Virus record (IMG/VR): IMGVR_UViG_2731957842_000003 | Reading direction: 5' to 3' (one strand) | Source: a virus | Taxonomy: Duplodnaviria; Heunggongvirae; Uroviricota; Caudoviricetes | Length of the DNA: 6,886 nucleotides | Part shown: piece by piece, positions 1,489 through 4,400 of the stretch | How the letters are laid out: each line of letters starts with the position of its first letter | How positions within the stretch are numbered: the first letter of the stretch is position 1 | Translations under genes and position numbers: made by a program | Notes under the pieces: model-generated | The model's database searches: none | What the model was told of the DNA's origin: nothing | Seen by the model: only the letters and a program-made list of their open reading frames with translations

Positions 1489-4400
1489 CCTGACGGCCAG
1501 TCCACACTGCTTTCACGCTGGCGCGGAAAAGCCGCGCTCGCCGCCTTTACAATGTCCCCGACGATTTTTTCCGCCCTCAGCGTACCGTTTATCGTACAGT
1601 TTTCAGCTATCGTCACATTACTGAGCGTCCCGGAGTTCGCATTCACACTGCCACTGATATCCGCATTTTTAGCGGTCAGCTTTCCGTCCGGTGTCAGGGA
1701 AAAGGCCGGAGGATTGCCGCCGCTGGTAATGGTGGGGGCCGTCAGGCGCTTCAGGAACACGTCGTTCATGAATATCTGGTTGCCCTGCGCCACAAACATC
1801 GGCGTTTCATTCCCGTTTGCCGGGTCAATAAACGCGATACGATTGGCGGCAACCAGAAACTGGCTCAGTTTGCCTTCCTCCGTGTCCTCCATGCTGAGGC
1901 CAATACCCGCGACATAATGTTTGCCGTCTTTGGTCTGCTCAATTTTGACAGCCCACATGGCATTCCACTTATCGTTGGCGTCCTTCCACTCTTTCGAAAA
2001 CTCCTCCAGTCTGCTGGCGTTATCCTCCGTCAGCTCGACTTTTTCCAGCAGCTCCTTGCCGAGATGGGATTCGGTTATCTTGCCTTTGAAAAAATCCAGG
2101 TAACCTTCCGCATCATCGCTCGCCCGACCGACGGCCTCCACGAATGCCGATTTGCCAACGGTGTTCACACTGCGGATATAAAAGTAATAATCATGGCCCG
2201 GTTTGATATTGATACTGGCGGCTATCCAGTACAGCGCCGTACCAAGATAACGCGCGCTGGTTTCAACCTGTCTGATATCCGCAATCTGCTTTTCCGAGAA
2301 CCAGAACTCAAACTGTACCGTCGGGTCATAAACGGCAAGATGCGGCGTGGCGGTTATCTGAAAATAGCCCGGCGTCAGCTCAATCCTCGACGGTGCTGCC
2401 GGTGCGGCAATCCGGAACGATACCGACGCCGGATCGCCCTGCTGCCCCCACGCATTTACCGCCCGGACTGTCAGCCTGTAGTTCCCCAGCGCCAGTTGCG
2501 TGAAGCGGTATGTGGTTTCCGTCGTCCGGGCCGTGCTGACCAGCCGCTCACTGCCGTCATCCGCTGCCACGGTCAGGCGAAGCATAAAGCTCACGCCCTT
2601 CACCACCTTCGGCGTGTCCCAGCGCGCCAGCACCTGATATTCCCCGCTGTCTGCGGTGACTTCGGCAGTCAGGTGCTGCACCGCGGGCGGCGTGACGCCA
2701 TTCACCGTGCCGCTCTGGTCGCCGTCAAAGTGCGCCCCGTTATCCACGATGGCTTCTTTTTCGGGTACATGCTGCACGGCGGTGATGGCATACGTGCCGT
2801 CGTCGTTCTCACGGATACTCACGCAGCGGAACAGGCGCTGGCGCAACGTCGGCAACTTCAGCCCCCATACGCTGTATTCAGCAACGCCGTCAGGAACACG
2901 GCTCACTTTCACCTTCACGCCGTCGGTGACGGACTGGACCTCCACGCTGACCGGATTACCCTGCCCGTCAACCAGGCTTATCAGCGTGGTGCCGGAGGAT
3001 GGCAGCGTGATTTCACGGTCGAGCGTCAGCGTCCGGGTCTGGCTGTTCACCGCCAGCACGCGACCACCGATGCTGATACCGGCATAGTCATCATCGCAGA
3101 TTTCAATAACATCGCCCGGCACATGGCGAAGCCCTTCTGCGCCCACGCTGAAATCCACGGTCTGCGTTTCCAGCAGTTCCGTTTTAATCAGCCACAGCCC
3201 GGCTCGGTGTGCCTGCCCCCGACTGGTACAACCAAAGGCATCCATCTTCGTGACATTACGACCGTAACGGGCAATGGCCTGCGTATCTTCAACAAGCTCT
3301 GTCGCCGTCTCCCAGCCGTTATTCGGGTCAATCCAGTTCACCTCAACGGCATTATGGCGGTCCTTCAGGGCGCTGAAGCTGTAGCGGAACGGCGCACCAT
3401 CATCCGGCATCACCACATTACTGCGGTTATAGGTCCACACCTTATCTGATGGTCGGTCCTGCACGAACGTCAGCGTCTGCCCGTTCCATACCGGCATACA
3501 GCGCATCGCCGAGCAGAAATCACTGAGCACATCCCACGCCTTACGCTGTGTGGTCAGGTACGCATTACAGGTAATGCGCGGCTCCGTGCCGCCAAAGCCG
3601 TCCGGCACCGACTGGTCGCAGTACTGGCCGATGACATACAGCGCCCATTTATCCACATCCGCCGCACCAAGACGTTTCCCCATGCCGTAGCGCGGGTGGG
3701 TCAGCATATCCCACAGACACCAGGCCGGGTTGTTGCTGTATGCCGGTTTTAACGTTCCGTCCCAGATACCGCTGTATTGCCGCGTCTGCGGGTTATAGTT
3801 CGACGGCACCTGCAGAATACGCCCGCGAAGATGATAATTACGGCTCACCTGCTGGCTGCCGAACTGCTCCGAATCCACCTTTACGCCGACCAGTGCCGTG
3901 TTCGGGTAGCCCTGTTTCACATCGATGATTTCGGTGTATGACGACCAGAGCGTTTTGTTCTGCAGCTGGTCTGTGGTGCTGTCCGGCGTCATTCTGCGCA
4001 TCCGGATATTAAACGGGCGCGGCGGCAGGTTATCCACCACCACCGAGGCCAGATACTGCGAGGTGGTTTTGCCCTTAATGGTGATGTCTTTTTCCGTCAC
4101 CCAGCCACCATTACGCTGTATCTGAACCAGCAGGCGAACTTCCGACGGATTCCGGTCCCCCTTTGAGGTGGTTTCCACCAGTGCCTGCACACCGAAGGTA
4201 AAGCGCAGTCGGTCGATGTTTGCCGACGTGATGGCGCGGGTGATCGGCGTGTCATATTTCACTTCTGTACCGAGCACCGTCTCGGAGCCGGAGGATTCAA
4301 ATCCCTCCGGCGGTGTCTGCTCCTGCTCACCTGCCCGGAACACCACCGTGACGCCGGATATATTGGTATTCCCCTCTCCCCATGATGATCTGCTTGTCAA
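1482..4400 (-). pseudogene. J: Tail tip / host-specificity protein J, internal fragment (roughly lambda J residues 52-1017); lacks the N-terminus and the C-terminal receptor-binding region
   Basis: The 972-aa track ORF is near-identical to recalled lambda gpJ from ...[30 protein letters not shown] through ...[15 protein letters not shown]. The only in-frame 'start' is a TTG at 4400 inside the junction with no convincing RBS. The reading frame stops one codon after homology ends (WPSGI*), where Lom homology begins. Confidence 0.88.

Follow-up and report, generated by a model that had tools for sequence, protein, structure and literature searches.

An out-of-frame deletion scar joins terminase gene A to tail-tip gene J in a probably defective lambda-like prophage of Escherichia coli

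The window (the whole stretch of DNA that was analysed, 6,886 bp) is identical to contig JTFE01000074.1 of E. coli VL2874 (GCA_001441335.1), whole and reversed, by exact sequence match. VL2874 is an isolate from bovine mastitis, and this prophage is not described in the VL2874 genome paper (PMC4556653). Every gene of the window is carried by the minus strand, and the features are listed in Table 1 in the order in which this strand is read; A' and J' denote the truncated genes. The window sequence at 6841 ends ...GGGTAGGATCA, which is the terminus of IS3. The cos homologue aligns with lambda bases 1–195 and with the sequence that precedes Nu1 in the intact prophage of BCE049; the exact lambda cosN 12-mer is absent from the window, and the site is a diverged cos homologue by alignment. 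Nu1 matches PF07471 over the full profile (Pfam, E = 2.4e-83). No RNA families were found in the window by Rfam. Long Ala-, Pro- and Arg-rich ORFs on the plus strand (124–1018) are located over the stf coding sequence, and a minus-strand ORF in another frame (200–802) likewise overlaps it. These look like mechanical ORFs without independent support.

Table 1. Features of the window (positions on the plus strand of the 6,886-bp window).
Feature	Position	Strand	Remarks
IS3 element right end, last 46 bp	6841..6886	-	cut by contig end; upstream of cos and Nu1
cos site homologue	6290..6376	-	cosN-like GGGCGGCAGCGG, then cosB-like stretch
Nu1, terminase small subunit, intact, 182 aa	5639..6187	-	Pfam PF07471 and gene callers
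A', terminase large subunit, truncated	4327..5667	-	431 A codons, 15 out-of-frame codons (J DNA) and TGA
Deletion joint 1 (A/J)	4375..4376	-	GA is the sole sequence common to A-side and J-side breakpoints
J', tail-tip gene, truncated	1482..4376	-	codons 56–1018 of 1132, then Ile and TGA
Deletion joint 2 (J/lom)	1487..1490	-	GGTA common to both breakpoints; 845 bp lost
lom remnant, last 59 codons	1306..1485	-	Pfam Ail_Lom and homology to BCE049 lom
stf, side tail fibre gene, 5' 1.24 kb (413 codons)	1..1241	-	frame open to contig end

At the end of the A sequence the minus strand reads ATC ATC ATG GGG AGA GGG GAA TAC CAA TAT (4389..4361), and an earlier reading of the sequence alone had proposed an out-of-frame A-to-J deletion joint here. 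The breakpoints were mapped by BLASTN of the reverse-complemented window against the intact prophages of BCE049 (L001) and ARS-C101 (L008), which, together with that of TK3046 (L002), a megablast search of complete E. coli genomes had brought up. A homology extends as far as window 4375, which is L001 20526 and the end of A codon 431 (...IIMGR). At window 4376 J homology sets in; this is L001 34888, the first base of J codon 56 (GAG, which encodes the E of EGNTN). Exactly 2 nt (GA) belong to both alignments, and filler DNA is absent. The same codons were obtained with lambda as the reference, where the A alignment ends at about 2003 and J homology begins at 15670 (J nt 166), and the O103:H2 12009 prophage again gave A codon 431, J codon 56 and GA in common. 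The two homologies therefore abut at 4375/4376 as had been proposed; the location stood, but the codon numbers given with it (about 425 in A and 52 in J) were each off by 4 to 6. Past the joint, the A frame continues as AGA GGG GAA ... through 15 sense codons to TGA at 4329..4327, which makes up the 16 codons that had been predicted.

The stretch between the breakpoints is 14,363 bp in both BCE049 and ARS-C101. Its lambda counterpart is about 13.7 kb (coordinates about 2004–15669), which agrees with the earlier estimate of 13–14 kb from lambda coordinates. The missing block consists of the last 207 codons of A, the genes W, B, C/Nu3, D, E, FI, FII, Z, U, V, G, T, H, M, L, K and I, and J up to codon 55; in relatives it is annotated as head-tail joining, portal, protease/scaffold, decoration and major capsid proteins, FI to T, the tape measure and M to I. 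The loss of the head and tail-shaft module from W to I, as read from the sequence, was thus borne out. A comparison with sister genomes, which had been suggested as a check for an undeleted ancestor, showed that ARS-C101, BCE049, N61 and others keep the module. These results confirm that joint 1 is a real out-of-frame deletion scar, at which truncated A is joined to truncated J.

The identical 446-aa A', including the 15-aa out-of-frame tail, is present in four independent assemblies, which are VL2874 (GCA_001441335.1), GCA_964050635.1 (L004), Logan ERR4037288 (L006) and Logan SRR29398494 (L007). The L006 contig was seen in 5 samples. Across joint 1, the DNA of L006 and L007 is 100% identical to the window, and L004, a 3.4-Mb contig of GCA_964050635.1 in which the prophage lies beside potB, has 1 mismatch and 1 gap over 5,059 aligned bases (99.96%). 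The closed genome VG48B2 (L003) is without the whole module and matches the window at 100% identity on either side. Joint 1 was found in 0 of 5,426 complete RefSeq E. coli genomes. When a 1-kb query spanning it was searched by megablast, no complete E. coli genome or phage record covered both halves, and an exact-match scan of one genome per species with the 24-nt joint gave no match. Joint 1 is strain-lineage specific and is therefore missing from representative genomes; its absence from the complete genomes, the phage collection and the species scan means that it marks a narrow lineage.

The absence from complete RefSeq genomes, and the fact that the window is a short draft contig between repeats (IS3 at one end, stf at the other), could also be expected if a short-read assembler had linked two unrelated prophage fragments and the module were really present. 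However, the breakpoints have 2 nt in common, so there is no repeat for an assembler to collapse on, and independent assemblies of three further data sets contain this joint, among them the 3.4-Mb contig and the Logan assemblies. The closed sister VG48B2 is also without the entire module at the same locus. Because of these three points, the probability of an assembly artefact is practically nil.

The deletion truncates the products of both genes. In A', the ATPase domain PF05876 (GpA_ATPase) is complete (residues 46–293, profile positions 2–247 of 247, E = 6.6e-55), and the nuclease domain PF20454 (GpA_nuclease) is represented by profile positions 2–115 of 294 only. The A sequence stops at residue 431 of 638 and is followed by 15 unrelated residues, which leaves A' without the portal-binding C-terminus; A of the intact relative has 638 aa with the full nuclease domain (Pfam). 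The C-terminal part of lambda gpA provides the cos-cutting activity and prohead docking. On the other side of the joint, J homology starts at J nt 166 in four references, and the native start and the N-terminal 55 residues are lost. This is consistent with the earlier claim that J has no start of its own, since homology begins only at codon 56. No in-frame ATG occurs in J' for about 140 codons, and gene callers place a 953-aa J ORF from a GTG at window 4343. J' keeps the domains FNIII-A, Phage-tail_3, Ig_J, Ig_J_second and Phage_Tail_Tip (Pfam, E 6e-34 to 5e-43). The receptor-binding domain PF12421 (Ig_GpJ_C), which occupies residues 1001–1132 in the intact relative, is absent from J' (Pfam), as joint 2 cuts J' off after codon 1018. 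The A' and J' products are probably without function. In GenBank, the A' product is labelled 'Terminase large subunit (Gp2)' (KRR50931.1).

The window is too short to show host flanks, int or regulatory genes, and the prophage context was read from VG48B2 and L004. Starting from potC, the VG48B2 locus has int, xis, exo, dicB, ydfA, repressor/cro, replication genes and an OLD-type nuclease, followed by hokD, rusA, Q, holins, lysozyme, bor, IS3, Nu1, the fused pseudogene, a lom remnant, stf, tfa and potB. The L004 locus was examined from the OLD-type nuclease rightward and has the same order as VG48B2, through stf-tfa into potB and potA. Besides stf and tfa, no morphogenesis genes were found between int and potB (VG48B2 element and L004 locus). 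That the prophage makes no heads or tails itself had been claimed from the 6.9-kb window, which alone is insufficient for such a claim; the context in L004 and VG48B2, without head or tail-shaft genes, upholds it. The element, about 29 kb in size, keeps int/xis, immunity, replication, Q, lysis, cos, Nu1 and stf-tfa. Its own terminase would be unable to cut cos or to dock the prohead, and no heads, tail shafts or tips would be built. Since the cos homologue is retained, alongside intact Nu1, the element still has a packaging signal. Judged from gene content, these results support that the element is a defective (cryptic) prophage, which is integrated between host genes, with W to I absent and both A and J truncated.

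Compared with lambda (NC_001416), the locus has the same order Nu1-A...J-lom-stf and a homologous cos. The DNA identity to lambda is 97% for J' and 99.7% for lom-stf (window 1–1490), but A is only about 68% identical to lambda A. The stf gene here is without the frameshift of lambda PaPa, as it has one extra C (window 58) relative to lambda PaPa position 20833, where a frameshift splits stf into orf-401 and orf-314. Consistently, stf runs for 413 codons without a stop in the window and is full-length (774 aa) in the sister L004. Much closer to the window is ARS-C101 (NZ_CP132979), which agrees with it in the IS3 that lies upstream of cos, in the Nu1 protein (WP_000867509.1) and in the A sequence up to the breakpoint, and whose int-adjacent genes are the same as in VG48B2. 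Over the left side (IS3 end, cos, Nu1 and A to the breakpoint), ARS-C101 and the window are 99.76% identical across 2,512 bp. In contrast to the window, ARS-C101 and BCE049 (NZ_CP042250) have the complete 14.36-kb A-to-J module, full-length J and lom. Because of the left-side identity, the same IS3 and the full module, ARS-C101 represents the near-ancestral undeleted state.

J is mosaic. Over its 5' 1.9 kb (window 2500–4376), it differs from lambda and from the best A-side relatives by about 3%, and is 99.9% identical to J of the O103:H2 12009 prophage next to ompT; the J 3' 1 kb is essentially identical to lambda-type J. Because of the divergence of the 5' 1.9 kb, the true ancestor had a different J allele from that of the best A-side relatives. 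This patch could be taken to mean that the joint arose by illegitimate recombination between two lambdoid genomes, for instance those of a resident prophage and of another prophage or a phage that infected the cell, as the A side agrees with ARS-C101 at 99.76% and the adjoining 1.9 kb of J at only about 97%, and the 99.9% identity of that stretch is to a prophage J at another locus. However, the J 3' 1 kb, lom and stf are again near-identical to the same relatives as the A side, so the patch looks like homologous mosaicism that preceded the deletion. The chromosomal flanks are also collinear with those of undeleted relatives, with potB and potA on the right in L004 and VG48B2, potC and int on the left in VG48B2, and int-adjacent proteins that are the same as in ARS-C101, whereas an exchange between two prophages far apart would leave the chromosome with an inversion or a deletion. 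A two-genome origin is quite improbable, and it is simpler to read the J patch as ordinary homologous mosaicism that was in place before the deletion.

The sequence around joint 1 says little about how the ends were joined. A microhomology-mediated deletion had been suggested from the short G-rich overlap GGGAGAGGGG, but this overlap is a product of the fusion and was not present in the parents. GGGGAGA is derived from A and GGGGAA from J, and GA alone was present at both ancestral breakpoints. Sharing of at least 2 nt is expected by chance with P = 0.156, so the suggested microhomology is not distinguishable from chance. An interrupted similarity covers 7 of 13 positions at the joint (post hoc P of about 0.03). 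Around joint 1, only short direct and inverted repeats at chance level were found, with nothing able to template a deletion, and no IS end lies at the joint, where A and J homology abut directly. An IS-mediated adjacent deletion was rejected, as the nearest IS (IS3) is 2.5 kb off and is present in undeleted relatives too. Programmed frameshifting that would fuse A' to J' was also considered; on inspection, GGGGAGAGGGGAA is without an X XXY YYZ slippery heptamer, which speaks against it. The description that suits joint 1 best is illegitimate recombination in which little or no homology was used. Microhomology may have templated the event, which GA does not demonstrate, and the 2 nt in common point to no particular molecular mechanism of joining.

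The most probable origin is one deletion by intramolecular illegitimate recombination within a lambda-like (Qin/lambda mosaic) prophage between potC and potB, which would have removed 14.36 kb and joined the ends at the 2-nt coincidence GA. A single deletion event would account for the loss rather than several, and it may have occurred by replication slippage or by an end-joining type of illegitimate recombination. The probability is about 0.93 that the joint is the scar of one intramolecular deletion in a now-defective lambda-like prophage at potC/potB, in a cattle-associated E. coli lineage.

Joint 1 is not the only lesion in this lineage, and the decay of the element is still going on. At joint 2, J codon 1018 is fused out of frame to lom codon 146, and the loss comprises J codons 1019–1132 (the receptor-binding PF12421) and lom codons 1–145. 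Sharing of at least 4 nt by chance has P = 0.016 here. Among the 5,426 complete E. coli genomes, joint 2 is carried by VG48B2 only. The lom remnant matches positions 142–199 of 199 of the Ail_Lom profile (Pfam), and its homology to the L001 lom starts from nt 437. The stop TGA of J' overlaps the ATG of the lom remnant (ATGA). Joint 2, at the J/lom boundary, was absent from the sequence-only reading.

Two sisters have been damaged further. In VG48B2 (NZ_CP128584), 1,637 bp corresponding to window 3430–5066 are missing at 16819–16820, across joint 1. A codon 200 and about J codon 371 now meet there at TA, which both sides have in common. Relative to the window, VG48B2 has thereby lost A codons 201–431 and J codons 56 to about 371. 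Either a 1.6-kb deletion took out joint 1 itself, or a larger deletion arose independently of it. In L004, an IS21-family element (IstA and IstB, 13841–16411, termini TGCGTATT...AATACGCA) is inserted inside J and has duplicated 6 bp of its target (TCGTAT, window 1837–1842). That A' and J' have independently received these further lesions in VG48B2 and L004 argues against selection on either fragment. The IS3 upstream of cos was also found in VG48B2 and in the undeleted ARS-C101, EC11, N61, VG35A2 and XJ34, and the annotation of VG48B2 and ARS-C101 has an IS3-family transposase at this site; its presence in undeleted relatives means that the IS3 insertion is older than the deletion.

The remaining genes raise the question of a retained function. 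It could be supposed that the remnant is kept for a role, with Nu1 and the ATPase-only A' blocking the packaging of superinfecting phages, or with a helper mobilising a cos-bearing element. The cos homologue, Nu1 and the ATPase domain of A are all intact, the sequence is identical among carriers, and the sisters still have int/xis, immunity, replication and lysis genes. However, identity among carriers reflects recent common ancestry rather than selection, and both the codons lost from A and J in VG48B2 and the IS21-family element in J of L004 fit neutral decay. Such a role is extremely improbable. It is also very improbable that the deletion made a helper-dependent element, which a lambdoid phage resident in the same cell and of matching cos/terminase type would mobilise, or which would hamper the packaging of that phage. 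If this were true, the element would be maintained for that reason and would not be junk.

Qin, Rac and DLP12 of E. coli K-12 are cryptic or defective lambdoid prophages. The element resembles them in being lambdoid, in the loss of morphogenesis genes by internal deletion, in its IS insertions and in the fragments that are kept, e.g. Nu1 homologues, lom, stf and tfa. Early genes of the Qin type (dicB, ydfA, ydfB and hokD) are present in the sisters of this element. In contrast to Qin, Rac and DLP12, it is integrated at potC/potB and has the lineage-specific breakpoints A codon 431 to J codon 56. Because undeleted relatives at 99.8% identity survive, the element is much younger than the cryptic prophages of K-12.

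Joint 1 is an ordinary deletion scar of a routine kind, which brings no new biology and whose value is for annotation. A' and the 953-aa J ORF deserve flags as pseudogene fragments, and prophage predictors should score the element as defective. The lesions can be ordered as a stepwise erosion, from the IS3 insertion to the 14.4-kb deletion, then the 845-bp deletion, and then, depending on the sister, the 1.6-kb deletion or the IS21-family insertion. The lineage is thus a small, clean example of stepwise prophage erosion, for which near-identical undeleted relatives are available to compare.
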